Shown one piece after another: positions 4,038 through 36,186 of a stretch of DNA of 64,000 bases (position 1 is the stretch's first letter; every line of letters begins with the position of its first letter). The stretch spans positions 14,194-78,193 of the forward strand of contig JAFDYU010000006.1 of NCBI GenBank assembly GCA_018267285.1. Reading direction: 5' to 3'. Position numbers and translations under genes: made by a program. Under the pieces are notes generated by a model. It did no database searches and was not told the origin of the DNA. It saw only the letters and a program-made list of their open reading frames with translations. This DNA comes from Bacteroidota bacterium. GTDB lineage: Bacteria > Bacteroidota > Bacteroidia > Cytophagales > Cyclobacteriaceae.

Positions 4038-4955
4038 TCAATCTTGTAAAGTAAAGGTTGTTCCTTCCGTGGCTAGCTCGGTATTTTTAAAAATACTTCG
4101 GGCTTCATCGAGCAGCAGATCGAGCCGATTGTACCGTGCCGAAAAATGACCGATCACCATTTTTTGTACCGATGCCTGCCGGGCAATTTCTGCGGCTTGC
4201 GAAGCCGTGCTGTGTTTTGTTTCTACCGCTTTGGCCAGGTCGGCATGGGCAAAGGTGGCTTCGTGGTAGAGCAGGTCAACATTTTTAATCTGCTCAACCA
4301 TCTGGGTATTTAGGGCGGTGTCGGAACAATAGGCGTACGAAAGCGAAGGCCGTGGCGGTAAGGTAAGCGATTCATTTTTGTACAACAGGTTGCCTTGTTC
4401 ATCGAAAATGTCGGCTCCGGTTTTTAGTGAGGCAATTTGCTGAAGTTTTAGCCCATCAATTATTTTTTCTTTGTTGATCCTTCGGGGCTTTCGTTTTTCA
4501 CGAAATAAAAACCCGGCACATTCCAGTTTATGAATTAACGGTATTGTTTCAACGGTTAAGATTTCATTGTCTATCAGTGTTTCAATTTTATTCGGATCGA
4601 ACGGATGGAAGACGATTTTGTAATTCAACGCAGACTTCGCGTGTTTTAAGTGAAGCGTAATCATTTCATCCAACCCTTGCGGACTGAACAAATGCAGATC
4701 TGTAGCCCGTTTGTGAAGGTGCATAGAAAACAATAAGGGCATCAATCCCAGATAGTGGTCTCCGTGCAGGTGGCTGATGAAAATGTGATCTATTTTATGA
4801 AACGAGAGTTGCAGTTTAGCCAGTTGCATCTGGGCGCCTTCACCACAATCGATGAGGAAATGCCGATTTTGAATAACGAGGTGCTGCGAAGTAGGATATC
4901 TGCCTATGGCCGGAAGCGCGCCACTTGAACCGAGGATTGTAAGACTAAGCGCCAA
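4038..4955 (-). CDS. rnz: Ribonuclease Z (metallo-beta-lactamase fold)
   Basis: Motifs LTILGSSGALP, FLIDCGEGAQ and the HLHGDH zinc motif, at 305 aa. The start codon is TTG. Confidence 0.85.
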   Translation of the reverse strand: MALSLTILGSSGALPAIGRYPTSQHLVIQNRHFLIDCGEGAQMQLAKLQLSFHKIDHIFISHLHGDHYLGLMPLLFSMHLHKRATDLHLFSPQGLDEMITLHLKHAKSALNYKIVFHPFDPNKIETLIDNEILTVETIPLIHKLECAGFLFREKRKPRRINKEKIIDGLKLQQIASLKTGADIFDEQGNLLYKNESLTLPPRPSLSYAYCSDTALNTQMVEQIKNVDLLYHEATFAHADLAKAVETKHSTASQAAEIARQASVQKMVIGHFSARYNRLDLLLDEARSIFKNTELATEGTTFTLQD

Positions 4956-9040: not shown

Positions 9041-9934
9041 CTACCAATCCGGTTTACCTTTTTCTTTTGGCTTTGTTGCCTTGCGTTTGTTCTGCTGAAG
9101 GTATTGTATTTCCTGATTTTTCATGGCCTCTAAAATCATCTTGGCTTTATCTTCACTAATCTGCATGTCCTTCAATTTTTCGGCCAACGATGGATCCGGT
9201 TTTTTCTCATCCTTGTTTTTATTTTTTTCTTCTTGCTCCTTTTGCTGTTGCTCTTTGTCTTTCTGCTCTTTCTTTTGTTGCTCTTTGTCTTTTTGGTCTT
9301 TTTGCTGTTGATCTTTCTGGTCTTTCTTTTGTTGATCTTGCTTGTCTTTGTTCTGCTGATCTTTTTGGTCTTGTTTATCTTTTTGGTCTTTGTTCTGTTG
9401 GTTTTTGTTGTCTTTGTTTTGTTCTTTATTCTTCTCGTCTTTTTTGTCTTTGTTATCCTTGTTTTCTTTATTCTGATCTTTGTTTTGCTGTTGTTGCTTT
9501 TTTTGTTCTTCCAGCTTTTTCTTTACCATTTCATAATTATATCGTGCTTGTTCATTCGCAGGCTCTGCTTTAAGTGCCTGCTTAAAGTAATTCAGAGCCT
9601 CTTCAAATTTGCTTTGGCGGTTGGCCATTACACCCATTTGCTGATTGGCCCAGGACTTTAGCTTGGCATCTTTGCTTACGGTTAGCGGTTGATAATTTGT
9701 AAACGCATTGGTGGTATCGTTGGTTCGGAAGTAAGCGTTTGCCAGGTTCATGTTTATTTCTTCTTCGCTTACGTGCATGGAATCGATGAGGAAACGGTAC
9801 TTGGCAATAGCGGTTTTAAATTCTCCGGCAAGGAATGCTTTTTTGGCTTCCGATTTCAAAGAATTTATTTTGCTCACCTTGGTGGGGTCGGTGAGCGCAA
9901 CGAGCGCAAAGAAAATAAAAGCAAGCCATTTCAT
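9041..9934 (-). CDS. TPR protein, BatC-like, with a long K/D/Q/N/E low-complexity tract
   Basis: Signal peptide and TPR-like N-terminal half. Residues about 138-246 are almost only K, D, Q, N and E. Translationally overlapped (ATGA) with the upstream VWA gene, as in Bacteroides bat operons. Confidence 0.6.
   Translation of the reverse strand: MKWLAFIFFALVALTDPTKVSKINSLKSEAKKAFLAGEFKTAIAKYRFLIDSMHVSEEEINMNLANAYFRTNDTTNAFTNYQPLTVSKDAKLKSWANQQMGVMANRQSKFEEALNYFKQALKAEPANEQARYNYEMVKKKLEEQKKQQQQNKDQNKENKDNKDKKDEKNKEQNKDNKNQQNKDQKDKQDQKDQQNKDKQDQQKKDQKDQQQKDQKDKEQQKKEQKDKEQQQKEQEEKNKNKDEKKPDPSLAEKLKDMQISEDKAKMILEAMKNQEIQYLQQNKRKATKPKEKGKPDW
9197..9523 (-). repeat. Cryptic simple-sequence tract encoding the K/D/Q/N/E-rich region of the BatC-like protein
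   Basis: The DNA is degenerate (CTTTTTG/GTCTTTG/CTGTTG)n on the plus strand. It produces spurious L/F-rich ORFs on the opposite strand. Confidence 0.7.
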
Positions 9935-21712: not shown

Positions 21713-22498
21713 ATGCACAAACCCACCCTCTTGCTATTATTGGCTGCTTTAGCATGCTCCTGTGTGCCTAACCGAAAGGTTTTGTATTTGCAAAAAAATG
21801 ATTTGGTTAAGCACCGGGCCGATACATCTATTGCACGGGCATACACATTGAAGGGCTTTGACTATAAAATTCAGACCAACGATATTATTTCGGTTCGTTA
21901 CCAAAGCCTTACACAAAAAGAGTTCGACTTTTTAGGTTCACAAAATCAAACCAACATAGGAAACTCTATGTACATTGGTGGCGCGCTGTTGTACGGTGAC
22001 CTGGTTGACGAAAAAGGCGAGATTCCGATGCCGGTGGTTGGTAAAGTAAAAGTAGCAGGCCTCACAATCTATCAAATACAAGACACACTTCAGGCGTTGG
22101 CAAATAAATATTTGGAAGCTCCTGTGGTTAAGGCGCGGTTGCTCAACTACCGGGCGGTTATTTTGGGCGAAGTAAAAAAAGAAGGAGACATTACCTTTAA
22201 CAATAATCGCGTAAGCCTGATGGAAGCCATTGGCATGGCGGGTGGGTTGGGAGAATTGGCCGATCGATCCAATATAAAAATCATTCGCCAACAGAACTCC
22301 AAGGTTGAAGTGCACTACGTGAATGTTCTGGAAGAAGACTTTCTTAATTCTCCTTTTTATTATGTCCATCAGAACGATCTCATCATTGTGCCTCCACTTC
22401 GTCAGCGCCCTTACCGCTTGTATTTCGGTCAGAACGTGTCGTTGATTCTTTCGTCCGTATCAATCCTTCTCCTCTTAATCACCCTAAATAAAAAATGA
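21713..22498 (+). CDS. wza: Polysaccharide export outer-membrane lipoprotein (Wza/BexD family)
   Basis: Lipobox LAALACSC. Poly_export-type motif YKIQTNDIISV…GEIPMPVVGKVKVAGLT…, followed by a SLBB-like region. Confidence 0.8.
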   Translation: MHKPTLLLLLAALACSCVPNRKVLYLQKNDLVKHRADTSIARAYTLKGFDYKIQTNDIISVRYQSLTQKEFDFLGSQNQTNIGNSMYIGGALLYGDLVDEKGEIPMPVVGKVKVAGLTIYQIQDTLQALANKYLEAPVVKARLLNYRAVILGEVKKEGDITFNNNRVSLMEAIGMAGGLGELADRSNIKIIRQQNSKVEVHYVNVLEEDFLNSPFYYVHQNDLIIVPPLRQRPYRLYFGQNVSLILSSVSILLLLITLNKK

Positions 22499-22499
22499 T

Positions 22500-24854
22500 A
22501 TGGGAATGCAAGGGATGGATTCATTTTCTCAGGAACCGCACAATCAAGGATTTAAAATTGATTTTAAACGCGTTGCCGATCGGTCGTTAAGGTATTGGTA
22601 TGTAGTAGTTTTGTCATTAGTTATTTCGCTCACCATTGCCTACCTGCGAAACCGCTATGCCGTACGCATATACCCGATTACGGCCTCCGTTATCATCAAA
22701 GAAAAAGAAGAAACCAGCGGGGCAGAACTCTTATATAATAACGCACTGATCAATCCCTACCGAAATTACTTAAACGAACCCTATATTATTCGGTCGTATC
22801 CAATCATTCAACAGGTGGTTGAGGACTTGAATTTTGAAGTTGTTTTTTTTAAAGAAGGAAATATTAAAACAACGGAATCGTACGGCCTTCCGGTAAAGGT
22901 AAAATTGCTCAAGCGAAACGGATCGTACAACGCTTCGCTAAATTTTAAAGCACTTGACGAAAAGACTTATTCCATTAGCAGCAATGACCCCGGAGAAAAA
23001 CATGCAGAACAGATTTTTAAATTCAATGATAGCGTGGTTTACAACGGCCATCATTTTTTAATAAAGAACGACCTGGATCGCATCAATCAAATTAAAAATG
23101 ATCCATACATACTTACTTTTTTAGATCCCTTAAGTGTAACGGGAGGCTACGTAAATGCGCTTAAAGTGGAGTGGGCAGAAGAAGGTGCCGGTGTAATTAA
23201 TTTGGCCATTAATGGAGCAAATACAAATAAAGAGATTGACTTTTTGAATAGCTTGATTCTGACCTATCAGAAACACGATCTTGAAAAGAAAAACCAAGCA
23301 GCCGAACGAACCATACAATTCATAAAAGGCCAGTTGTCGGAAATTACGGATTCGCTGAAAAATTTTGAATTTAAACTCCAGCAATTTAAGATGGTCAACT
23401 CGGTGGATAAGCTGGACGAAGACACAAAACGAATTTTTGAAAAATTAACTCCGCTCGAAGCCCAGCAAATTGAATTGACCATCCGATCTAACTATTACGA
23501 TTATCTTACAAAATATATTAAAGAAGGGAAGAATCTGGATTTAGTGATACTGCCCTCAGCCATGGGCATTGATGATCAGGTACTCACCAACATGATCAAT
23601 AAAATGGTTGAATTACAACTCGAAATAAAATTATTTATCAGTAAAAATTTGCAGGAAAATCCGGCCGTGCAATCTGCAATGAGAAAGGTGAATGAGTTAA
23701 AAGATAATTTACAGGAGTCGGTGAGTGCACTGCGAAAGACGGATAAAATAAAAGGCGATCTTATTTTAAAACAAATTGGTGATTTGCAAAAACAGATTGA
23801 CCAACTACCCCTGCAACAACGGCAATTTGTTTCCATACAACGAAACTATTCGTTGTTAGAGGGGCTTTATGTATTTCTGATGCAGAAAATGTCTGAAGCG
23901 GCCATATCAAGAGCGTCTAACGTATCGGATATTGAAGTGGTTAATCCGCCTATGCAAGGAGATGCCATTACACCCAACACACGACAGAATTATACAATTG
24001 GCTTTTTGCTTGGGCTTTTCATCCCTCTTGGAATTTTTGTGTTGCTCGAAGTTGTAAATCAAAAAATTCAATCGAAAGAAGACATCGACAAATTTTCTGA
24101 CTTACCTTTTTCGGGTGGTATCGGGCACAGCGATTTGGTTGATAATATGGCAATCACCGCAAACCCAAAATCTGCAGTTGCCGAGTCATTCCGAGCCATC
24201 CGGTCGAACCTCAATTATTTTACAGGCAATGTGTTGAAGAAAGTTTTCATGGTGAGTAGTTCGATCAGCGGTGAGGGGAAAACGTTTACTACGATCAATC
24301 TTGCTACTGTCTTTGCGATGTCCGGTAGGAAGACGCTCATTATCGGTGCGGATATGCGAAAACCAAAAATTTATTCAGACTTTAATCTGGATAACCGGGT
24401 AGGGTTGAGCGGATATCTGAGCCGATTAAACACCCTGCAAGAAGTAATACAAAACACAACGGTCGAAAATCTGGATTTGATTAGCGGTGGCCCTGTTCCA
24501 CCTAACCCCGCGGAATTACTTTTAACAGATCGGTTCGGTGAATTGATTCAGGATGCTCTGAAGTTGTACGATTATATAATTATTGACACGCCTCCGTTAT
24601 TGCTGGTTACCGATGCCTTTGTGCTTTCAAAATATGCCGATCATACTGTGTTTGTAGTTCGCCAAAATTATACGCCAAAAACTTTCCTTCGGAACATCAG
24701 CGATTTTTACAACACGGGTAAACTAAAAAACATAAGCCTGATATTGAACGACATCTATAAATCCGGCTTCGGTTATGGATATGGATATGGCTATGGATAC
24801 AGCTATGCCTACGGCTACGGGAAAAAGAAAAATGGGGACGGGTACTACTCTTAG
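22500..24854 (+). CDS. wzc: Polysaccharide co-polymerase / BY-kinase (Wzc, GumC family)
   Basis: 784 aa. Wzz-like N-terminal domain with two TM helices and a coiled-coil periplasmic region. Walker A SSISGEGKTFTT, IIIDTPP, and a C-terminal Tyr cluster. Confidence 0.85.
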   Translation: MGMQGMDSFSQEPHNQGFKIDFKRVADRSLRYWYVVVLSLVISLTIAYLRNRYAVRIYPITASVIIKEKEETSGAELLYNNALINPYRNYLNEPYIIRSYPIIQQVVEDLNFEVVFFKEGNIKTTESYGLPVKVKLLKRNGSYNASLNFKALDEKTYSISSNDPGEKHAEQIFKFNDSVVYNGHHFLIKNDLDRINQIKNDPYILTFLDPLSVTGGYVNALKVEWAEEGAGVINLAINGANTNKEIDFLNSLILTYQKHDLEKKNQAAERTIQFIKGQLSEITDSLKNFEFKLQQFKMVNSVDKLDEDTKRIFEKLTPLEAQQIELTIRSNYYDYLTKYIKEGKNLDLVILPSAMGIDDQVLTNMINKMVELQLEIKLFISKNLQENPAVQSAMRKVNELKDNLQESVSALRKTDKIKGDLILKQIGDLQKQIDQLPLQQRQFVSIQRNYSLLEGLYVFLMQKMSEAAISRASNVSDIEVVNPPMQGDAITPNTRQNYTIGFLLGLFIPLGIFVLLEVVNQKIQSKEDIDKFSDLPFSGGIGHSDLVDNMAITANPKSAVAESFRAIRSNLNYFTGNVLKKVFMVSSSISGEGKTFTTINLATVFAMSGRKTLIIGADMRKPKIYSDFNLDNRVGLSGYLSRLNTLQEVIQNTTVENLDLISGGPVPPNPAELLLTDRFGELIQDALKLYDYIIIDTPPLLLVTDAFVLSKYADHTVFVVRQNYTPKTFLRNISDFYNTGKLKNISLILNDIYKSGFGYGYGYGYGYSYAYGYGKKKNGDGYYS
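24771..24821 (+). repeat. (GGN-TAY)n hexanucleotide repeat encoding the GYGYGYGYGYGYSYAYGYG tyrosine cluster of Wzc
   Basis: Direct reading: ggt tat gga tat gga tat ggc tat gga tac agc tat gcc tac ggc tac ggg. Confidence 0.9.
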
Positions 24855-26963: not shown

Positions 26964-28724
26964 ATGGAACTCATTCAGGTTTACGTTTTGCTGGTGATTT
27001 GTTTCCTGATTTACGCCTTGTACAAGGAATTGTTTAATCCATCGCTGTCCTTCTTTATTGCTACCCTTGCCCTGCTGATCGTCAAAGCAATTTCTCCGGC
27101 AGATTTATTGCGAGGCCTGTCCAATCAGCAAGTAGTTATTGTATTTCTACTTGTGCTGGTAACGGCCGGCATCCGAACTATTTTTGGGGTTGAGTGGTTT
27201 GCGCGCTTATTTAGTTTCAACTTAAAGCCAAAAACTTTCTTGCTGCGGATGACGATGTTTGTATCATCCATCTCAGCGTTCTTAAACAACACGCCCATCG
27301 TTGCTTTTATGATACCGTATGTAAAAGCCTGGGCGGAGCGCACCGGCCATGCGCCATCTAAATTTTTGTTCCCGCTTTCCATGGCTACTATTCTCGGTGG
27401 CATGATCACCGTTATCGGTACATCTACCAGCCTGATCTTGGCCGGGTTGATTCAGGAATACAAACTGCCCATGCTTGTGTTTACCGATTTTCTGTATTTG
27501 GGATTGATTGTTACCGTAACAGGCTGGGCGTATCTTTATTTTTTCGGGTATAAACTTTTACCGGAAACCACCAGCCGTATTGAGGCGTTCAGGCAAAATG
27601 TAAAAGAGTATATTGTTGAAACCGAAATTTTTTCCGGTTCTATGCTCATTGGTAAAACGGTGCGAGATGCCGGGTTGAGAAACCTGAAAGATGTGTTTCT
27701 GGTTGAAATCATTCGCAGTGAAGAAATTATTTCTCCGGTTAGCCCGGAAATGAAATTAATGGAGGGCGACACACTTTTTTTTTCGGGCAATAAGCAATCC
27801 ATCTACCGACTGATAAAAGACGATAACGGCTTGCGCATTCCCAAACAAGATAAACTTGAGGTAGAAGGCCAATTTAATTTTGTGGAAGCGGTGATACCTG
27901 CCGGGTCGGAGTTGGTAGGAAGGCGCATCAAAGATTCTGATTTTAGAAGAAGGTATAACGCTTCCATCATCGCCATCCACCGCGATGGGAAACAAGTATC
28001 CGGCAAAGTAGGAGAGATGAAAATGAGCGGTGGCGATTTTTTGCTTTTGCTCACCAAAGATGAAACACTCAACCAAAGCTCGATTACCGATTTATTTTTT
28101 GTTTCCGTTCCCGATAAAATCGATTCGAAAGAAAACAAATGGATTCGTTGGTTTGGAGCAGCTTGCTTTTTGTTTTTGATTGCCGGCATCGTAGGCGTGC
28201 TTCCACTCTTTATGGTGTGCATGATACTTCTCATGGCTATGATTGCATTTAAAATTCTGGATATAACGGATATCCGCAAAGAACTTGATCTTGGCTTGTT
28301 GTTGATCATGGTGTCTGCGTTGGCCATCGGTGTGGCACTCGACAAGACCGGCACTGCGCCCATGCTTGCCCATGGAATAATCAAGGTTGGTAATTCACTG
28401 GGGCCAGTTGGTGTTATATCGTTATTTTTTATTGTAACAACGTTGATAACCTCATTGGTAACCAATGCAGCTGTGGTGGCAGTTATGTTTCCAATCGCTA
28501 TGTCTATTGCCGATCAAATGCACCTGTCGTACACTCCTTTTTTTGTTGCGTTAGCATTTTCGGCATCGGGAGATTTTATGACACCCATCGGGTACCAAAC
28601 CAACCTGATGATTTATGGGCCTGGTGGTTATCGTTTTAAAGATTTTGTAAGGGTAGGTGTTCCATTTACCGTGCTCTACACCGTTATTTGCATCGTATTT
28701 ATTGCTTACTACTATCATTTGTAA
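26964..28724 (+). CDS. SLC13/DASS-superfamily anion permease with two central TrkA-C (RCK_C) domains, probable sulfate transporter
   Basis: 586 aa with TM blocks at both ends. Two cytoplasmic TrkA_C-like repeats (…GKTVRDAGLRNLKDVFLVEIIR… and …GRRIKDSDFRRRYNASIIAIHRDG…). Immediately upstream of cysC-cysD-cysN. Confidence 0.7.
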   Translation: MELIQVYVLLVICFLIYALYKELFNPSLSFFIATLALLIVKAISPADLLRGLSNQQVVIVFLLVLVTAGIRTIFGVEWFARLFSFNLKPKTFLLRMTMFVSSISAFLNNTPIVAFMIPYVKAWAERTGHAPSKFLFPLSMATILGGMITVIGTSTSLILAGLIQEYKLPMLVFTDFLYLGLIVTVTGWAYLYFFGYKLLPETTSRIEAFRQNVKEYIVETEIFSGSMLIGKTVRDAGLRNLKDVFLVEIIRSEEIISPVSPEMKLMEGDTLFFSGNKQSIYRLIKDDNGLRIPKQDKLEVEGQFNFVEAVIPAGSELVGRRIKDSDFRRRYNASIIAIHRDGKQVSGKVGEMKMSGGDFLLLLTKDETLNQSSITDLFFVSVPDKIDSKENKWIRWFGAACFLFLIAGIVGVLPLFMVCMILLMAMIAFKILDITDIRKELDLGLLLIMVSALAIGVALDKTGTAPMLAHGIIKVGNSLGPVGVISLFFIVTTLITSLVTNAAVVAVMFPIAMSIADQMHLSYTPFFVALAFSASGDFMTPIGYQTNLMIYGPGGYRFKDFVRVGVPFTVLYTVICIVFIAYYYHL

Positions 28725-29323
28725 TGTCGCAACCCAAAGAATTATATCCTGTACGATCGAAAGTCATGTATAAAGACCGGGTTGAGGCAATGGGGCAAAT
28801 TCCGCTGCTGATCTGGTTTACAGGCTTGTCGGGGTCAGGCAAATCAACGCTGGCAATTCAGTTGGAATCTTTGCTTTTTAAAAAAGGCTATAAAACGTAT
28901 TTGCTCGAAGGAGATACCATCCGCACCGGGTTGAACAGCGATCTGAGTTTTTCGGAAGAAGGAAGAAATGAAAACATGAGGCGCATAGCCGAAGTTGCCA
29001 AGCTGATGGTTGATGCGGGCATGGTAGTGTTGGCGGCATTTGTTTCGCCCTGGAAAAAAAACCGCGACTTGGTAAAAAAAATTGTTGGAGCAGACAGGTA
29101 TTTTGAGGTTTTTGTGGATGCACCTCTCGAAGTATGCGAGCAGCGCGATGTAAAAGGACTTTACAAGAAAGCACGTACAGGCGAGCTAAAAGATTTTACG
29201 GGGATAAGCTCTCCCTACGAAAGACCTGAACACCCAAATGTTGCAGTGCAAACCGATAAGATAAATCAAGAAGAGGCTATTAATTTACTATTGAAAAAAG
29301 TTGAAGACCGGATTAAACCATGA
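28724..29323 (+). CDS. cysC: Adenylyl-sulfate (APS) kinase
   Basis: P-loop WFTGLSGSGKST, LLEGDTIRTGLN and FVSPW. The ATG at 28724 overlaps the permease stop (TAATG). Confidence 0.9.
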   Translation: MSQPKELYPVRSKVMYKDRVEAMGQIPLLIWFTGLSGSGKSTLAIQLESLLFKKGYKTYLLEGDTIRTGLNSDLSFSEEGRNENMRRIAEVAKLMVDAGMVVLAAFVSPWKKNRDLVKKIVGADRYFEVFVDAPLEVCEQRDVKGLYKKARTGELKDFTGISSPYERPEHPNVAVQTDKINQEEAINLLLKKVEDRIKP

Positions 29324-30225
29324 ACCAGTATTATTTAAGTCATTTAAAAGAGTTGGAGTCGGAAGCGATTTTTGTGATCCGCGAAGTGGCTGCACAATTC
29401 GAGCGGCCCGCATTGCTTTTTTCCGGAGGAAAAGACTCGATCGTTCTATCGTATTTGTCGAAAAAAGCTTTTTACCCGGCACGGATTCCTTTTCCATTGA
29501 TACACATAGACACGGGGCACAACTTTCCAGAAACGATGGAGTACCGCGATTGGTTGGTGAAAGAGCTTGGTGTAAACCTAATTGTTGGGTCGGTGCAAGA
29601 GAGCATCGACAAAGGAAGGGTAAAAGAAGAGACCGGTATAAATGCAAGCCGTAATGCGTTGCAAACCGTAACGTTATTAGATACCATCGAAGCCCATAAA
29701 ATTGATGCAGCTATTGGTGGTGCACGCAGAGACGAAGAAAAAGCACGGGCCAAGGAACGATTTTTCTCGCACCGTGATGAGTTCGGACAGTGGGATCCCA
29801 AAAATCAGAGACCGGAGCTATGGAATTTATTTAACGGACGCAAACAAATAGGTGAGCATTTCCGGGTCTTCCCGATTTCGAATTGGACAGAGATGGACGT
29901 GTGGCAATATCTTTTTACCGAAAAGATTGCAATACCCCGGCTTTATTTTGCCCACGATCGAGAAGTGATTGTGCGCGATGGCGCCATTCTCTCCACATCG
30001 CCCTGGTTAACGTTACGCACCGGAGAAACACCGGCAATTAAACGCGTGCGCTTCAGAACCTGCGGAGACATGCCCATTACCGGAGCGGTGGAGTCGGAGG
30101 CAGATACCATGGAAAAAATTATTGCAGAAGTTGCGGCATCGCGAAAAACCGAGCGCGGCACACGGGCTGACGACAAGCGATCGGAAACCGCCATGGAAGA
30201 CCGGAAAAAATCAGGATACTTTTAA
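29320..30225 (+). CDS. cysD: Sulfate adenylyltransferase subunit 2
   Basis: 301 aa with HLKELESEAIFVIREV, PP-loop LFSGGKDS and RFFSHRDEFGQWDPKNQRPELW. Confidence 0.92.
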   Translation: MNQYYLSHLKELESEAIFVIREVAAQFERPALLFSGGKDSIVLSYLSKKAFYPARIPFPLIHIDTGHNFPETMEYRDWLVKELGVNLIVGSVQESIDKGRVKEETGINASRNALQTVTLLDTIEAHKIDAAIGGARRDEEKARAKERFFSHRDEFGQWDPKNQRPELWNLFNGRKQIGEHFRVFPISNWTEMDVWQYLFTEKIAIPRLYFAHDREVIVRDGAILSTSPWLTLRTGETPAIKRVRFRTCGDMPITGAVESEADTMEKIIAEVAASRKTERGTRADDKRSETAMEDRKKSGYF

Positions 30226-30236
30226 TACGATAACCA

Positions 30237-31481
30237 GTGAACCAACTATTACGTTTTACTACTGCAGGAAGTGTTGACGATGGCAAAAGCACATTGATCG
30301 GTCGGTTGCTGTACGATAGCAAATCTATTTTCGAAGACCAGCTTGAGGCCATCCAAAATTCAAGTTCGAAAAAAGGATTTGATTATGTCGACCTTTCGCT
30401 CTTAACCGATGGCCTAAAATCGGAACGCGAGCAGGGCATCACCATCGATGTTGCCTATCGGTATTTTGCTACACCCAAAAGAAAATTTGTTATAGCCGAT
30501 ACGCCCGGCCACATACAATACACCCGCAACATGGTAACGGGCGCATCTACGGCAAACCTTGCCTTGATTTTGATCGATGCCCGCAAAGGTTTGGTAGAGC
30601 AAACCTATCGACATTCGTTCATCGCATCGTTGCTAAAAATCCCGCACATCATTGTTTGTGTGAACAAAATGGACCTGGTTGATTTCAAACAGGAGGTCTA
30701 CGATAAAATCACGGAAGAGTATCGGGCATTTTCATCAAAGCTTGAGGTGCACGACATTCAATTTGTGCCGATCAGCGCACTTACAGGCGATAACGTGGTG
30801 AACCGTTCGGAAAAAATGAGTTGGTACCAAGGAGCGGCTTTGTTGTATATGCTCGAAACGGTGCACATCGAGAGCGATCAAAACCATATCGATAGCAGGT
30901 TTCCGGTGCAGTACGTGGTTAGGCCACAGTCAAAAGAAAATCATGATTTCCGCGGGTATGCCGGCCGTGTGGCCGGAGGAATTTTCAGAGCAGGCGATGA
31001 AGTGATTTCATTTCCTTCAGGATTTAAGTCGCGAGTAAAAGAGATCTTTTCCGGATCCGAAAAACTGAAAGAAGCTTTTGCGCCCATGTCGGTTACCATG
31101 ACACTGGAAGACGATATAGATGTTAGTCGGGGCGATGTGATCGCTAAGCCAAACAATCACCCTCAAACCGAACAAGATATTGATCTGATGATTTGCTGGA
31201 TGAACCAAAAACCTGTGAAGCCCGGAGAAAAATTTTTTATACGGCATACCACACGCGAAGTGAAAGGGATACTCAAAGAAATTCAGTATAAAATGGACAT
31301 CAACAGTTTGCAGCGCATAGAAAATGCAGATCAACTGGTGATGAACGACATTGCGCGAGTTAGAATCCGCACAGCTCAGCCCTTGTTTTTCGACAGCTAT
31401 CGAAAAAATAGAATCACAGGCAGCCTTATTATGATTGAAGAAGGAACGAACGAAACCGTAGGTGCTGGAATGATTATTTAA
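30237..31481 (+). CDS. cysN: Sulfate adenylyltransferase subunit 1 (GTPase), no fused APS-kinase domain
   Basis: 414 aa. G1 GSVDDGKSTLIGRL, DTPGH and NKMD motifs. GTG start. Confidence 0.9.
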   Translation: MNQLLRFTTAGSVDDGKSTLIGRLLYDSKSIFEDQLEAIQNSSSKKGFDYVDLSLLTDGLKSEREQGITIDVAYRYFATPKRKFVIADTPGHIQYTRNMVTGASTANLALILIDARKGLVEQTYRHSFIASLLKIPHIIVCVNKMDLVDFKQEVYDKITEEYRAFSSKLEVHDIQFVPISALTGDNVVNRSEKMSWYQGAALLYMLETVHIESDQNHIDSRFPVQYVVRPQSKENHDFRGYAGRVAGGIFRAGDEVISFPSGFKSRVKEIFSGSEKLKEAFAPMSVTMTLEDDIDVSRGDVIAKPNNHPQTEQDIDLMICWMNQKPVKPGEKFFIRHTTREVKGILKEIQYKMDINSLQRIENADQLVMNDIARVRIRTAQPLFFDSYRKNRITGSLIMIEEGTNETVGAGMII

Positions 31482-31633
31482 TTTTTTATTTTATGGTAGT
31501 CATTCTCGATTATGGTGTTGGCAATTTAGCTTCCATAAATAATATGCTCAAGCGGATAGGGGTGGAGGCTGTTGTTTCAGCACAAGGTGAAGTGATGCAA
31601 CAAGCTTCGCATATTATTTTGCCCGGAGTAGGC
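31376..31633 (+). repeat. Direct repeat copy 1 (cysN 3' end + spacer + first 47 codons of hisH)
   Basis: By-eye alignment with 32502-32758 gives about 94% identity, with roughly 15 substitutions or small indels. Weaker similarity extends about 15 nt further left. Confidence 0.9.
31493..31633 (+). pseudogene. Truncated 5' fragment of hisH-like amidotransferase gene
   Basis: MVVILDYGVGNLASINNMLKRIGVEAVVSAQGEVMQQASHIILPGVG matches the N-terminus of the intact gene at 32618 (4 aa differences). Similarity ends abruptly at 31633, and the ORF then runs into unrelated sequence until 31771. Confidence 0.85.
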
Positions 31634-31755
31634 CACTTCTTTATCAAAATGAAAGTAAAGAAGGGGTGCGGCTATGAACTAGTAGGCGAAATTAAACAAA
31701 AGATATTTTCGGTTCTCACTCTTAAGGCATTTGTTGAGTTGGATTCAAATGCAAA

Positions 31756-31784
31756 TTTGTATCTTTGTTGATAAGTTAAATTTG
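31756..31784 (+). promoter_or_regulatory. Candidate Bacteroidetes sigma-A promoter for the TA pair
   Basis: TTTG (31756-31759), a 17-nt spacer, then TAAATTTG (31777-31784), an exact match to the TAnnTTTG -7 consensus. The antitoxin ATG lies 10 nt downstream. Confidence 0.4.
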
Positions 31785-31793
31785 AAAAATGAT

Positions 31794-31994
31794 ATGAGGA
31801 CAGCCATAGTTGCCATCAAGAATAAAAGTGAAGAAACTTTTTTAAAGACATTTTTTAAGAAAGCCGGTATTCGTGCCCGTATCATGAAACAATTTGAAAT
31901 TGAAGATGCCATTTTTGCGGCCTTAATTGATGAAGGCATGAAGACTGAAACCGTTTCCGAAAAATCAGTATTGAAGGCCCTGCATACAAAATGA
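31794..31994 (+). CDS. Putative antitoxin of the RelE/ParE-type module
   Basis: 66 aa (MRTAIVAIKNKSEETFLKTFFKKAGIRARIM…). Small and acidic, with its stop overlapping the toxin start (ATGA). The call is based on position and size. Confidence 0.5.
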   Translation: MRTAIVAIKNKSEETFLKTFFKKAGIRARIMKQFEIEDAIFAALIDEGMKTETVSEKSVLKALHTK

Positions 31995-32260
31995 TAGTTG
32001 CCTATAAGGGAGCTTTCAGAAGGGATGCATCGAAAATTAGCGACCGTCTGATAAAAAAATCGATAAGCTCAATTATTGTGCAGGTTAAAGAAGCTTCAGG
32101 CATTTCCAATATTCATCGACTAGTAAAACTTCGCAAGTACAAGGTTCACTACAGAATTGAAATTGAAAATAACTACCGCGTTGGGTTAATTATCAGGAAT
32201 AATAAGGTTTGGTTTGTGAGGGTGCTACATAGAAGTAAAATTTATAAAAAATTTCCTTGA
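31991..32260 (+). CDS. RelE/ParE-family type II toxin (mRNA interferase-like)
   Basis: 89 aa with the pattern F.RD..K…(helical)…KL…YRI.I..NYRVGLII..NKVWFVRVLHRSKIYKKF, typical of ParE_toxin/RelE-StbE proteins. Confidence 0.7.
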   Translation: MIVAYKGAFRRDASKISDRLIKKSISSIIVQVKEASGISNIHRLVKLRKYKVHYRIEIENNYRVGLIIRNNKVWFVRVLHRSKIYKKFP

Positions 32261-32501
32261 TTAAGATGGAACATAGAGGAGAGCGTAGGGAATTAGATGT
32301 TGATTCTCTCGTTGACTGAACCATTATTTTTTTAAAAATTTGCAATTTCCATTTTCAAATTTTAAGTAAGCATGCCTCCAGTTATACAGGTAACTAACAG
32401 TCTAAAAAAATTATTATCTCTTACGAAAAGAGAGAACGCTGTACCTCCCTACGCGATGTGGTGGTCAGGTGTTTTAAAAAGATATTTAGGATACGCACGG
32501 C

Positions 32502-32608
32502 ACAGCCCTTGTTTTTTCGACAGCTATCGAAAAAACAGAATCACAGGCAGCCTTATTTTGATTGAAGAAGGAACGAACGAAACCGTAGGTGCCGGGATGA
32601 TTATTTAA
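32502..32608 (+). pseudogene. 3'-terminal remnant of cysN
   Basis: Encodes …FFDSYRKNRITGSLILIEEGTNETVGAGMII*, nearly identical to the last 31 aa of the intact CysN. Nothing upstream of it resembles cysN. Confidence 0.85.
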
Positions 32609-32758
32609 TTTGTTATCATGGTAGTCATTCTCGATTATGGTGTTGGCAATTTAGCTTCCATAAAAAATATGCTGAAGCGGATAGGGGTGGAGGCCGTTGT
32701 TTCGGCAGAAGATGAAGTGATGCAACAAGCTTCGCATATTATTTTGCCCGGAGTAGGC
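32502..32758 (+). repeat. Direct repeat copy 2 (cysN 3' remnant + spacer + start of intact hisH)
   Basis: See copy 1. Confidence 0.9.
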
Positions 32759-33238
32759 GCTTTTGATACGTGCGCCACTCAACTTCACAATTCGGGATTG
32801 ATCAACTCGCTCACGAAAAAAGCTTTAGCTGATAAAACTCCTGTGCTTGGAGTATGCGTAGGTATGCAGTTGTTGCTCGAAGGAAGCGATGAAGGCAAAC
32901 AGCCGGGGTTGGGTTGGATAAAAGGACGTAACGTAAAATTCGACAGTAAAAAATTAACTAACGGTTTGAAAATACCGCACATGGGCTGGACCGATGTGCA
33001 CCCGGCTAAAGCTTCCGGTATTATGGAAGGGTTAGACAACGGTTCACGATTTTACTTTGTTCATTCCTACCACGCACAGCTTACCAACCCTACGGATGCT
33101 TTGATTTGGGCAGACTATGGATATGAATTTGCAGCAGGTGTGGGGCGTGATAATGTCATTGGCGTGCAGTTTCATCCGGAAAAGAGCCATAAATTTGGAA
33201 TGCAGTTGTTGGGGAATTTTGTAAAGAATTACACATGA
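32618..33238 (+). CDS. HisH-like glutamine amidotransferase (WbuY-type, polysaccharide-associated)
   Basis: 206 aa class-I GATase with nucleophile context VLGVCVGMQLL and C-terminal GVQFHPEKS. Located inside the polysaccharide locus. Confidence 0.8.
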   Translation: MVVILDYGVGNLASIKNMLKRIGVEAVVSAEDEVMQQASHIILPGVGAFDTCATQLHNSGLINSLTKKALADKTPVLGVCVGMQLLLEGSDEGKQPGLGWIKGRNVKFDSKKLTNGLKIPHMGWTDVHPAKASGIMEGLDNGSRFYFVHSYHAQLTNPTDALIWADYGYEFAAGVGRDNVIGVQFHPEKSHKFGMQLLGNFVKNYT

Positions 33239-33993
33239 AAAGAATACGGGTAATCCCTAGTTTGCTCATTCAAAACGGTGGCTTGGTTAAATCCATCAAA
33301 TTTAAAGACCACAAATACGTAGGCGATCCGATCAATGCCGTAAAGATTTTTAATGAAAAGGGCGTTGACGAGATCGTGATGCTCGACCGAACAGCATCTG
33401 CTTCGGGCCCTAACTTTGAAGCGATTGAAGATTTTGCGAGCGAAGCCTTTATGCCACTCGGCTATGGCGGTGGAGTTTCTTCCGTAGAACAAATAAAAAA
33501 ACTTATTTCCATTGGCGTGGAAAAAGTTATTCTAAACACAAACGCTTACAAAAATCCAAAACTAATTTCCGAGGGTGCCTCGTACGTGGGCAGCCAGAGT
33601 ATTGTAGTTTCTGTCGATGTAAAAAAAGACTGGCTCGGCAGGTACAAAGTTTTTATCGAAAATGGAGCGAAAAATACCGGCTTCGATCCTATAGATTATG
33701 TAAGTAAAATAGAAGAAGCCGGGGCAGGTGAAATTTTGTTAAACTCCATCGATCGCGATGGCACGTTTGCCGGTTACGATTTAAATTTGGTAGATATGAT
33801 TTGTTCATCGGTGAGTATTCCGGTAGTTGTGGCGGGCGGAGCCGGCTCGGTTGCCGACTTTAAAGAAGCGGTGCGCCACGGGGCATCGGCAGTGGCTGCA
33901 GGAAGTTTGTTTGTATTTCAGCGCCCGCATCGGGCGGTACTGATCAGCTACCCTTCTGAAACAGAGTTGAAAGAAAAGGTGTATTTAGAATAG
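33235..33993 (+). CDS. HisF2/AglZ/WbuZ-like cyclase subunit (acetamidino-sugar modification type)
   Basis: 252 aa. RVIPSLLIQNGGLVKSIKFKDHKYVGDPINAVKIFNEKGVDEIVMLD matches the HisF2-type signature rather than housekeeping HisF (RIIPCLDV…). ATGA overlap with the hisH-like gene. Confidence 0.75.
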   Translation: MKRIRVIPSLLIQNGGLVKSIKFKDHKYVGDPINAVKIFNEKGVDEIVMLDRTASASGPNFEAIEDFASEAFMPLGYGGGVSSVEQIKKLISIGVEKVILNTNAYKNPKLISEGASYVGSQSIVVSVDVKKDWLGRYKVFIENGAKNTGFDPIDYVSKIEEAGAGEILLNSIDRDGTFAGYDLNLVDMICSSVSIPVVVAGGAGSVADFKEAVRHGASAVAAGSLFVFQRPHRAVLISYPSETELKEKVYLE

Positions 33994-34077: not shown

Positions 34078-34899
34078 ATGCAATCAACTAGAATAATCAT
34101 AGAACCGGGTAGATCCGAAAAAAATTATTGGAGAGATCTATGGCTGTTTCGGGAGTTATTTTATATTCTTTCTTGGCGCGATATTAAAGTGAGGTACAAG
34201 CAGACCGTAATCGGTGCAGCCTGGAGTATCATTCGCCCGTTACTTACCACCATTATATTTACCATTGTGTTTAGCCGTGTAGCAAAGCTGGGTTCTGTAA
34301 GTGGAGCACCTTATTCCATTCTTGTTTTTGCGGGGATGCTGCCGTGGCAATTTTTTGCCAATTCATTGAGCGAGGCAAGTAACAGTTTGATAGGCAATGC
34401 TAATCTTGTTTCAAAGGTCTATTTTCCTAGAATGATTATTCCGGCCAGCTCCATTATCACCAGCTTTGTTGACTTTGCTATATCTTTCCTTATTTTATTA
34501 GGCATGATGGTATTTTACCAATACATGCCCAGTACAAAAATAGTTTTGCTCCCTATATTTATTTTACTTGCCTTTATTGCGGCCTTTGGTATTGGGCTAT
34601 ATATCACGGCACTGAACGTAAAGTACCGGGATTTCCGATACATAATACCTTTTATTGTTCAGATCGGATTATATATTACCCCGGTAGGCTTCAGCAGCAC
34701 CGTGGTTCCAGAAAAGTGGAGATTCTGGTATTCTCTAAATCCGATGGTGGGCGTAGTGGATGGATTTAGGTGGTGCATTATTAGTGAACCGTTGTATTGG
34801 CCGAGCCTGGTTACCTCTTTTTCGATGACTTTGCTTTTCTTGGTGATTGGTATTTTTTATTTCCGTAGAACGGAACGGAGTTTTGCGGACAATATTTGA
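34078..34899 (+). CDS. wzm: ABC-2 type polysaccharide export permease
   Basis: 273 aa with six TM helices. The N-terminal motif …LWLFRELFYILSWRDIKVRYKQTVIGAAWSIIRP is diagnostic of Wzm/TagG/KpsM permeases. Confidence 0.88.
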   Translation: MQSTRIIIEPGRSEKNYWRDLWLFRELFYILSWRDIKVRYKQTVIGAAWSIIRPLLTTIIFTIVFSRVAKLGSVSGAPYSILVFAGMLPWQFFANSLSEASNSLIGNANLVSKVYFPRMIIPASSIITSFVDFAISFLILLGMMVFYQYMPSTKIVLLPIFILLAFIAAFGIGLYITALNVKYRDFRYIIPFIVQIGLYITPVGFSSTVVPEKWRFWYSLNPMVGVVDGFRWCIISEPLYWPSLVTSFSMTLLFLVIGIFYFRRTERSFADNI

Positions 34900-34902
34900 G
34901 CT

Positions 34903-36186
34903 ATGAGCGAACCGGTTATAAAAGTTGAAAATCTATCTAAGCGCTTTGTTATCTCTCACGAAAAACAAGAGCGTTACACCTCTCTGCGCGATGTGGTGGC
35001 AAGACGTGCTAAAAAGATATTTTCCTTTCCTGCGCAGCCAACTACTAACATACCCGCAAAAGAAGATTTCTGGGCGCTGAAAGACATCAATTTTGAAATT
35101 AATAAGGGCGACCGTGTAGGCATTATTGGAAGAAACGGAGCCGGCAAGAGCACCTTACTGAAAATATTGAGCCGAATCACTGAGCCGACTAAAGGGCGCG
35201 TTACAATAGATGGCCGTGTAGCCTCTTTACTCGAAGTAGGCACAGGCTTTCATCCTGAGCTCACAGGTAGAGAAAACATTTTTTTAAATGGAGCGATCCT
35301 GGGCATGAGCCGCGCAGAGATCAGAAGTAAGTTTGACGAGATTGTGGCTTTTGCCGAAATTGAAAAATTTTTGGATACTCCTGTGAAACATTACAGTAGC
35401 GGCATGTACGTGCGCTTAGCTTTTGCCGTAGCAGCACATCTTGAACCCGAGATTCTGATCGTAGACGAGGTGCTAGCCGTGGGCGATGCACAGTTTCAAA
35501 AGAAGTGTTTAGGCAAAATGGAGGAGGTTAGCAAGAATGAAGGACGTACCATTCTCTTTGTTAGCCATAACATGAATGTCATTAGTGCTCTTTGTTCGAA
35601 TGCAATTCTTCTTAGTGGAGGAAGAGTTATTGAATCAGGAAGATCGATTGATGTGATGAATAGTTATGTGCTTGGTAGCGGTGGGAAAAGTTCCGAGCGA
35701 GAATGGGTTGGAAAGATGAGGCCAGGCAATAATATTATTAAATTGAATAGTGTTCGCATGATTGATGCGTCCAGATATTCGAAGGATACTTTCTCAATTA
35801 ACGAGGAAATTGGAATTGAAATGAACTATGAGGTCCTTGAAGATAATAATGTATTGTGGTTAGGACACAATTTGTACAATTCTGAGGGAGTAAATGTTTT
35901 TGATACACACAGCGTAAGCACTGACTTGTACGTGAAGCCTCACAAAAAGGGTAAGTATTCTTCCGTTGCTTGGATACCCGCGAACTTATTACCTGAAGGA
36001 ACATTCATTATAGGCAGTGGTGTATTTAATCATTCTGAGCATAGGATTCACTTTCATGAAAGAGATATTGTGGTTTTTAGTATTGTAGACACATATGATG
36101 GAAAAAGTGCGAGAGGATTAACCACAAGTCATTTTAGCGGAGTTGTGCGCCCATTACTTAGGTGGAATATAAATGCGAAAAAGTAA
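34903..36186 (+). CDS. wzt: Polysaccharide export ABC ATPase with C-terminal substrate-binding (Wzt_C-like) domain
   Basis: Walker A GRNGAGKSTLLK, signature YSSGMYVRLAFA and Walker B ILIVDEVLAVGD. An extra roughly 170-aa beta-rich C-terminal domain is present. Confidence 0.88.
   Translation: MSEPVIKVENLSKRFVISHEKQERYTSLRDVVARRAKKIFSFPAQPTTNIPAKEDFWALKDINFEINKGDRVGIIGRNGAGKSTLLKILSRITEPTKGRVTIDGRVASLLEVGTGFHPELTGRENIFLNGAILGMSRAEIRSKFDEIVAFAEIEKFLDTPVKHYSSGMYVRLAFAVAAHLEPEILIVDEVLAVGDAQFQKKCLGKMEEVSKNEGRTILFVSHNMNVISALCSNAILLSGGRVIESGRSIDVMNSYVLGSGGKSSEREWVGKMRPGNNIIKLNSVRMIDASRYSKDTFSINEEIGIEMNYEVLEDNNVLWLGHNLYNSEGVNVFDTHSVSTDLYVKPHKKGKYSSVAWIPANLLPEGTFIIGSGVFNHSEHRIHFHERDIVVFSIVDTYDGKSARGLTTSHFSGVVRPLLRWNINAKK

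Follow-up and report, generated by a model that had tools for sequence, protein, structure and literature searches.

A RelE-type toxin-antitoxin gene pair between two allelic copies of a cysN-wbuY gene junction in a Cyclobacteriaceae polysaccharide locus

The window analysed here comprises 64,000 nucleotides (nt) of a Bacteroidota bacterium of the family Cyclobacteriaceae (assembly GCA_018267285.1, contig JAFDYU010000006.1, positions 14,194 to 78,193 of the forward strand), and all coordinates below are positions within it. In the middle of a polysaccharide locus, between cysN and a hisH-like gene of the wbuY type, it carries a small toxin-antitoxin gene pair on an 852-bp insert, and this insert is bracketed by two diverged copies of the cysN-wbuY gene junction. 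The feature is a recombination scar of a kind that has already been described for other addiction genes, and no new type of mobile element. We tentatively favour, at somewhat short of even odds, the view that an addiction module arrived here by 'insertion with long target duplication' without the help of a recombinase, an 852-bp foreign fragment coming to lie between allelic copies of a 274-bp stretch of the junction. An earlier note, made from the sequence alone, had recognised the cassette and its repeats; what the present analysis adds is a remnant of a wzt gene within the insert, and the recognition of the repeat copies as alleles from different lineages.

Structure of the duplicated junction

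The direct repeats lie at 31360-31633 (274 nt) and 32486-32758 (273 nt) and are 93.1% identical (256 matched and 16 mismatched positions, 3 gap columns). In each, the final 122 nt of cysN are followed by a short spacer (11 nt in the left copy, 9 nt in the right) and then by the opening 141 nt of the hisH/wbuY-like gene. The earlier note had placed the copies at 31376-31633 and 32502-32758 with about 105 nt of cysN; the repeat is there, but starts 16 nt further left. The identity of about 94% estimated by eye agrees with a formal alignment over that shorter extent, which gave 93.8% with 13 substitutions and 3 gap columns.

The left copy (allele a) consists of the 3' end of cysN at 31360-31481, the spacer, and nt 1-141 of hisH/wbuY at 31493-31633, all on the + strand and delimited by pairwise alignment. 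It completes an intact cysN of 414 amino acids (aa) at 30237-31481 (+ strand; NCBIfam CysN TIGR02034, E 1e-171, and Pfam), the last 122 nt of which are part of the repeat, and it reduces hisH to a 47-codon stump that ends at the insert junction. The right copy (allele b, + strand, delimited by the same alignment) begins with a cysN tail remnant at 32486-32608, and after its spacer come the 141 nt that start the intact 206-aa hisH/wbuY gene. Both flanking genes are therefore left whole by the two copies, as the note had stated. The stump reads on into the insert as a chimeric open reading frame (ORF) of 92 codons (31493-31771, + strand, from the ORF list), 47 of them from HisH and 45 from insert DNA; it matches no Pfam family and is presumably non-functional, since most of the amidotransferase domain is missing.

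A repeat search of the whole 64-kb window put this pair far beyond chance expectation. The only other long repeats recovered were the wzt fragment described below, an ungapped inverted pair of 45 nt (71% identity) and a low-complexity array at 9203-9526. Within the duplicated cysN tail there is also a 23-nt near-palindrome (TTTTTCGACAGCTATCGAAAAAA; 31386-31408 and 32512-32535), and the one indel to affect coding sequence of the repeat, five versus six T, falls at its edge.

The duplication was reproduced by an independent assembly. In a k=31 assembly of run SRR24111707, three Logan contigs match the window at 100%: the first (L174) ends at 31461, the second (L001) spans 31604-32588 and the third (L171) begins at 32729. 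All three break off exactly 30 nt inside a run common to both copies, the runs concerned being of 34 and 46 nt; in the k=31 graph the copies have common runs of 34, 47 and 46 nt, the longest being 47 nt. Because a separate short-read assembly reproduces them, both novel junctions, that between hisH nt 141 and the insert and that between the insert and the cysN tail, are real DNA, and the duplicated junction reported in the note stands. Full-length cysN is joined by L174 to the allele-a tail as far as 31461, and the remnant allele-b tail is preceded by the insert alone. As L001 runs unbroken into that tail, the sample holds no full-length cysN that ends in it.

These data bear on whether the tandem could be the product of an unphased short-read assembly, in which a single junction plus a separate 1.13-kb circle or tandem array, or else a mixture of strains, was collapsed to a chimeric tandem. 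The Logan contigs do stop at the 34-, 47- and 46-nt common runs, and a path made of a circle plus an empty site is topologically allowed. However, the window's own 90-kb contig resolves the copies as a tandem, and with 47 nt as the longest common run ordinary reads of 100-150 nt phase them. The unbroken passage of L001 from the wzt remnant into allele-b cysN excludes a mix of a strain with b-insert-b and a strain with a, and a circle would have no replication functions. An artefact of this kind is consequently very unlikely.

Divergence of the two copies

The differences between the copies are concentrated at synonymous sites. In the cysN tail there are eight substitutions, all single-base, of which seven are third-position synonymous changes and one gives M in the functional copy and L in the remnant. 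L is the residue found in 72 of 81 CysN relatives, so the remnant carries the consensus; it shows no non-ancestral amino-acid change, and its sole lesion is one extra T in a T-run. At least seven synonymous changes in eight would arise under random placement with P = 1.3e-4, and the same test with the functional copy limited to synonymous change gives an estimated P of about 0.004. The hisH part has three synonymous and three non-synonymous changes. Its stump carries N16 (seen in 0 of 119 homologues) and G32 (1 of 119), with the consensus K16 in the intact gene, which suggests that the stump has decayed slightly. Over all coding positions, ten of 14 changes are synonymous (P = 1.2e-4), and the copies have diverged by roughly 0.17 differences per synonymous site.

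Since the differences are biased in this way, the copies are best read as alleles that diverged as functional genes in two lineages and were recently brought together, with almost no decay since. The note's proposal that the roughly 6% divergence came with DNA from a related strain is upheld by this bias and by the consensus residue kept in the remnant.

An in-place tandem duplication of the locus's own sequence, with the toxin-antitoxin fragment as filler and with copies diverging by mutation, would be expected to place changes mostly in the non-functional halves, about 77% of them non-synonymous. What is seen in the cysN tail is seven of eight synonymous (P about 1e-4, or about 0.004 with the constraint) and a remnant that keeps the consensus residue, and the divergence of the wzt remnant greatly exceeds that of the junction repeat (P 5e-5; see below). 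The joint between the wzt and cysN remnants does resemble the novel joint of a tandem duplication from the cysN tail to the wzt 5' end, and the scenario would merge with the insertion if allelic recombination had later overwritten one copy. In-place duplication followed by decay is rejected in view of the pattern of synonymous and non-synonymous changes, and we give this class of explanation very little credence.

Anatomy of the insert and the wzt remnant

The insert (31634-32485, 852 bp) is made up of a left flank, the gene pair, a right flank and the wzt remnant, and has a G+C content of 31-39% compared with 40-47% in the flanks. Its left unique part (160 nt, 31634-31793, + strand) showed no similarity in any search and is a putative promoter/operator region. 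The note had credited the cassette with its own TAnnTTTG -7 motif. The motif is present, in two copies upstream of the antitoxin gene (31760-31767 and 31777-31784), but across the window it occurs 53 times against 70 expected by chance; as it is not commoner than chance, it is weak promoter evidence. Short inverted repeats also lie just 5' of the antitoxin ATG (TTCAAAT at 31744 and ATTTGAA at 31780). A sigma-70 promoter scan is uninformative for Bacteroidota. On the + strand, no intrinsic terminator was found in the interval from the toxin gene to the gene that follows, and Rfam returned only a sub-threshold chance match over 31300-32800. From this layout the gene pair is probably transcribed by read-through of the operon together with a promoter of its own, and it may in turn contribute to, or modulate, transcription of wbuY-wbuZ-wzm-wzt.

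The right unique part (111 nt, 32261-32371, + strand) has stops in all frames and no similarity to wzm or to any other sequence. Beyond it, 32372-32487 (+ strand) is a remnant of the 5' end of a wzt-like ABC-transporter gene, comprising the start codon and about 39 further codons with one frameshift. Two statements of the note are corrected by this: 32261-32484 is not featureless, and the insert is not simply unique DNA with a toxin-antitoxin pair, because its last 115 nt or so are the 5' end of another wzt. Against the start of the resident wzt (34903-35022), the 5' end of which is its counterpart, the remnant shows 78% DNA identity and 69% protein identity. It was detected by blastn (E 1e-7) and by tblastx (SKKIIISYEKRERCTSLRDVVVRCFKKIF versus SKRFVISHEKQERYTSLRDVVARRAKKIF, E 1e-7), and independently in the whole-window repeat search (family D4).

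The remnant runs straight into the right-hand cysN tail, the two meeting at a 2-nt TT microhomology. Of its 77 positions aligned with the resident wzt, 17 differ, compared with 14 of 258 coding positions in the junction repeat (Fisher P 5e-5). The piece thus derives from a different wzt gene, and its 22% divergence is older than the joint, because the cysN remnant next to it shows hardly any decay from the time after the two were joined. Its source could be an earlier neighbour of the cassette in another locus, or the former wzt of this lineage; a search with the reconstructed 40-aa peptide gave no near-identical Wzt. Finding it at the joint means that the rearrangement involved a second polysaccharide locus or allele. 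That the wzt remnant abuts the cysN remnant, its 22% divergence and the lower G+C argue together for a foreign origin of the insert.

Starting from the ATG of the wzt remnant, a chimeric ORF of 78 codons (32372-32608) runs out of frame through the remnant. The extra T in the T-run of the cysN remnant moves it into the CysN frame and thereby onto the stop codon of that remnant, 9 nt short of the hisH/wbuY ATG; if the T were missing, the stop would come about 50 nt earlier. This could reflect preserved translational coupling into wbuY, or be a coincidence.

The insert lacks the hallmarks of known mobile elements. For a transposon or insertion sequence, no terminal inverted repeats were found at the insert ends, the duplication measures 274 bp and not 2-15 bp, and no transposase was encountered. 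The note's statement that there is no recombinase was also borne out: no integrase or transposase was found among the ORFs of at least 150 aa that were scanned or have recorded Pfam matches, which are most such ORFs in the 64-kb window. No attC-like ends were noticed, although no search was aimed at attC, and no integron integrase was found.

It is known that integration of a phage or other element may supply a diverged replacement for the end of a gene, as with phage 21 and e14 in icd. The insert might by analogy be the remnant of a larger site-specific element, of the tyrosine or serine recombinase type, that brought a replacement copy of the junction and has decayed to 0.85 kb or is mobilised in trans. 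It is typical of such elements that their direct repeats preserve both target genes, and the repeat contains identical cores of 46-47 nt. Yet no integrase or other mobility gene was found among the checked ORFs of at least 150 aa, its right edge is a gene fragment joined at a microhomology and not an att arm, homologous cassettes share nothing beyond the two genes, and matches to phages, plasmids or viral contigs are lacking. We consider this origin highly improbable.

The toxin-antitoxin gene pair

The pair consists of a putative antitoxin of 66 aa (31794-31994, + strand), assigned by its synteny 5' of the toxin and belonging to no known family, and a toxin of 89 aa (31991-32260, + strand), assigned to the RelE family from PF05016, profile and fold. 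The genes are co-directional with the antitoxin first, and the antitoxin stop and toxin start overlap by 4 nt (ATGA). The 89-aa protein scored 22.7 bits against PF05016 (ParE_toxin; E 1.5e-4), just under the cutoff of 23, and seven of eight family members match PF05016. The profile of the toxin family aligned over its full length with RelE3 of Methanocaldococcus jannaschii (PDB 3bpq_B) at E 1e-11. An AF2 model of the toxin (pLDDT 87.6) had RelE, YoeB, HigB and YafQ as best Foldseek matches, ahead of ParE, with a TM-score of 0.73 for RelE/YoeB. Profile and modelled fold together identify the protein as a predicted RelE-type mRNA interferase. The two overlapping small genes and the RelE/ParE-like toxin of the note are thus confirmed as a conserved pair, the toxin having a RelE fold.

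No Pfam, NCBIfam or PDB relative was found for the 66-aa protein or for its family alignment, and its single-sequence model (pLDDT 58) was too poor for a fold search. Together with its homologues (alignment A4), it forms a small family without relatives in these three resources, possibly an undescribed family of antitoxins.

Homologous cassettes in other contexts

Directly 5' of the toxin homologue, a homologue of the antitoxin gene, coding for 66-76 aa, is present in every context recovered. The two-gene module was found in six unrelated contexts: after an RND pump gene (contigs L082 and L083), in a glycosyltransferase region rich in toxin-antitoxin genes (L084-86 and L169), next to a methyltransferase gene (L087 and L088), and on three short contigs (L170, L172 and L173). 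Among these cassettes the two coding regions alone are conserved and the flanks do not align. The insert had no match to plasmids in a distant blastn search, the toxin had none to plasmids and phages by tblastn, and the toxin family had none to viral contigs.

Several of these cassettes are themselves bracketed by repeats. In L082 (also in L083), a 47-nt repeat at 4070-4116 and 4786-4832 is 83% identical, with mostly synonymous differences, and the order is an intact RND efflux pump gene, the cassette, and a remnant of the C-terminal transmembrane segment of the pump. This layout of gene end, cassette and gene-end remnant is the same as in the window. The metagenomic stretch L084 1-6555 (JGI 3300078429; variants L085, L086 and L169) has three successive cassettes, each with its own long direct repeat: the RelE-type pair between exact 48-nt repeats (L084 and L085), a DUF4258 pair between 284-nt repeats (95%), and an AAA_14/DUF4143 ATPase gene between 203-nt repeats (91%). 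It also contains three copies of a C-terminal glycosyltransferase fragment (93-96%), which differ little at the protein level and look allelic. An NTP_transf_2 gene and a PIN-domain gene in L084 look like further toxin-antitoxin modules. In the L169 haplotype one of the 48-nt copies is missing and a 34-nt deletion truncates the toxin.

Host-sequence repeats thus flank the cassette in three of the independent contexts of this toxin-antitoxin family, which hints, anecdotally, at a recurrent process. These three contexts, with the three bracketed cassettes and three glycosyltransferase-fragment copies of L084, raise the further idea that toxin-antitoxin and defence cassettes in Bacteroidota polysaccharide loci form a class of recombinase-free mobile units, which spread and stack by means of an allelic copy of their target and host homologous recombination. 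We regard this generalisation as quite unlikely. If true, it would be the counterpart of Kobayashi's proposed 'insert, amplify, release' cycle for restriction-modification genes, and would yield integron-like arrays in which host-gene fragments serve as 'att sites'.

Origin of the arrangement

Any account has to produce two illegitimate joints, one linking hisH nt 141 with the insert and the other wzt nt ~115 with cysN nt ~1124, as well as two allelic copies of the junction. In the insertion that we favour, the cassette would earlier have lain just 5' of wzt in another ABC-transporter polysaccharide locus, would have become linked to a copy of the cysN-wbuY junction by two illegitimate joining events, and would then have moved between related lineages by homologous recombination through that junction. 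The simplest route would be a single Campbell-type crossover of a 1.13-kb circle, which would leave at each variable site an allele from the donor and another from the recipient. The geometry and the synonymous-biased allelic differences are compatible with such a crossover, and the k=31 graph allows a 1.13-kb circle. The insertion is further supported by the homologous cassettes that are also bracketed by host-sequence repeats, and by the precedent of restriction-modification genes described below. A Campbell crossover, as proposed in the note, explains the transfer and suits the geometry; it leaves the two illegitimate joints unexplained, and block replacement (below) fits about as well.

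Once in place, the pair would tend to be retained. A crossover of one 274-bp repeat with the other would cut the pair out precisely; with the labile antitoxin gone, what is probably a ribosome-dependent mRNase of the RelE type would be set free, and loss of the pair would therefore be counter-selected. Cells with the deletion would be inhibited if the toxin outlives the antitoxin, which would stabilise the arrangement, and the cassette may in this way lock the local arrangement against repeat-mediated deletion.

Several points weigh against the insertion. No way in which a 1.13-kb circle could replicate or be transferred is known, and no such circle was seen; the first formation of the two illegitimate joints is left unaccounted for; and the wzt remnant is accommodated only as a passenger that the cassette brought from its former site. 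The allelic argument depends on 14 coding substitutions, the antitoxin has no recognisable family and the toxicity is putative. Neither an empty-site genome nor one with the same architecture was found in the collections searched, which reach 84% identity or less for CysN and 71% or less for HisH, and insertion over replacement is therefore not demonstrated. A scan of genome contigs for CysN returned 80 loci (identity up to 84%), and at none of the 80 did hisH follow cysN. The best HisH match in JGI metagenomes was at 66%, and in a set of 5.8 billion proteins the next-best match was at 71%; a look-up of the exact HisH protein gave no match, the Logan contigs breaking inside the gene.

The direct repeat could instead be a by-product of block replacement by homology-facilitated illegitimate recombination, the pair never having been 'inserted' at the junction at all. 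The resident lineage, with allele a, would have had the order cysN-wbuY-...-[toxin-antitoxin]-wzt(old). A fragment from a relative of about 94% identity, beginning within its cysN(b) and carrying wbuY-wbuZ-wzm-wzt(new) with more genes, would have entered, anchored by homology downstream and with its free end joined into wzt(old) at about nt 115 by the TT microhomology. The redundant old genes, from wbuY nt 142 to wzm, would have been deleted later, and the pair kept because its loss is lethal or harmful.

Block replacement needs few steps to arrive at a wzt remnant that is both diverged and fused to the cysN remnant, which it explains more naturally than insertion does. It also accounts for the cysN tail as a pristine piece of a functional allele and for the unusual residues in the truncated wbuY stump. 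Relatives with wzm-wzt downstream of cysN (L040; in L003 only a wzm match, 7.6 kb downstream) mark a variable polysaccharide region, and the intact pump gene, pair and mostly synonymous 47-nt pump remnant of L082 follow the same logic. On the other hand, tblastx detected neither wbuZ nor wzm sequence in the unique flanks of 160 and 111 nt, although the wzt piece of the same age is easily detected, so that the later deletion would need to have ended exactly in the cassette's own flank. The pair would also need to have lain between wzm and wzt in the old locus, an arrangement that was not seen in any relative (at the CysN and HisH identities given above), and the required downstream crossover could not be located in the window. 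On balance we hold block replacement to be somewhat less likely than the insertion, to which it is much the most serious rival.

The polysaccharide locus

The locus forms one long run at 21713-54402, in an ordinary chromosomal setting with housekeeping genes on either side (Pfam and ORF scan). It holds Wza/Wzc-like genes, epimerases, a sulfate permease, cysC-D-N, wbuY/Z, wzm/wzt, methyl- and glycosyltransferases and a carbamoyltransferase. The first genes 3' of the cassette are an intact hisH-like gene (wbuY-type, 206 aa) and hisF-like gene (wbuZ/AglZ-HisF2-type, 252 aa) at 32618-33993 (+ strand; NCBIfam). The pair matched TIGR01855 and NF038364 above cutoff and WbuZ TIGR03572 at 288.8 bits, below its cutoff of 299.7, and the hisF-like gene matched the NCBIfam family AglZ/HisF2 (acetamidino modification) above cutoff. 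These profile matches replace the note's label hisH: 'hisH' and the next gene are, from their sequences, a wbuY/wbuZ-type sugar-amidation pair, which excludes histidine biosynthesis, and would amidate a sugar of the polysaccharide.

The resident wzm (ABC-2 permease) and wzt (ABC ATPase with a Wzt_C domain) follow at 34078-36186 (+ strand; Pfam). The same locus thereby joins Wza/Wzc-like export genes (21713-24854) with a Wzm/Wzt ABC exporter. A sulfate-permease-like gene and cysC-cysD-cysN are embedded in it at 26964-31481, which suggests that the product is a sulfated glycan. In relatives the permease and cysCDN are kept together and the downstream genes differ. Far from the cassette, the low-complexity array at 9203-9526 has 21 overlapping copies with periodicities of 9, 12 and 15 nt; it lies within the gene of a TPR-domain protein (- strand ORF 9041-9934) and codes for a charged K/E/Q-rich tract.

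Comparison with known systems

As a gene pair, the cassette resembles type II RelBE modules such as RelE3-RelB3 of M. jannaschii (PDB 3BPQ) in having the antitoxin first, in the 4-nt overlap, in a toxin profile that matches end to end and in the fold. It differs from them in that the 66-aa partner matches no antitoxin family or solved structure and that the toxin falls just under the Pfam cutoff (22.7 versus 23). With the toxin-antitoxin cassettes of chromosomal integrons, which are small, bear promoters and stabilise variable arrays, it would have these traits in common; here the ORFs checked included no integron integrase, and the repeats consist of coding sequence of the host.

Capsule and O-antigen switching take place by replacement of serotype loci within polysaccharide loci. 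Homology-facilitated illegitimate recombination, reportedly described by de Vries and Wackernagel in 2002, is the other process to be considered beside it. The present case resembles the two together in the 2-nt microhomology next to a long homologous tract, in the gene remnants left where a replaced block would end, and in its setting, a variable polysaccharide locus. Such events normally leave neither an intact duplicated junction nor a retained addiction module. Campbell-type insertion-duplication likewise gives the order of homologous fragment, cargo and homologous fragment, with intact flanking genes and allelic copies; in the present case there is no vector, no replication or integrase function and no observed circle, and the joints are unexplained.

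The closest precedent is the 'insertion with long target duplication' of restriction-modification genes (Nobusato et al. 2000, Gene 259:99; Furuta, Abe & Kobayashi 2010, NAR 38:2428, PMC2853133), in which repeats of 46-423 bp and 93-99% identity, often across start or stop codons, occur without mobility genes (PMC2853133). When the features by which Furuta et al. (2010) recognised such cases are carried over by analogy from restriction-modification systems, the window shows a complete addiction set in an insert of less than 20 kb (852 bp), a repeat longer than 30 bp that is unique in the window, and no linked mobility genes among most of its ORFs of at least 150 aa. Both situations have an addiction-type pair without transposase or integrase, long target repeats on either side (274 bp here), intact neighbours, an operon-like site and an insert of lower G+C. 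The cargo differs, being a type II toxin-antitoxin pair, so that the double-strand-break activity invoked for restriction enzymes is absent. Furthermore, the insert carries a gene fragment of another locus, no empty-site genome was found in the collections searched, and the copies are, judging by their substitutions, demonstrably allelic and not one duplicated target.

Current concepts are left unchanged by this arrangement, and its value is that of a well-documented case and of a lead for a systematic survey. If the proposed insertion is correct, it would provide, in a poorly sampled Cytophagales lineage, a clean case of an addiction module that settled in an essential-looking operon without breaking its neighbours, and one in which the substitution pattern of the repeats both dates the event and points to its source. 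It would also suggest that addiction modules are the survivors when variable polysaccharide loci are repeatedly overwritten, and would extend gene mobility by 'long target duplication' from restriction-modification systems to a toxin-antitoxin pair.

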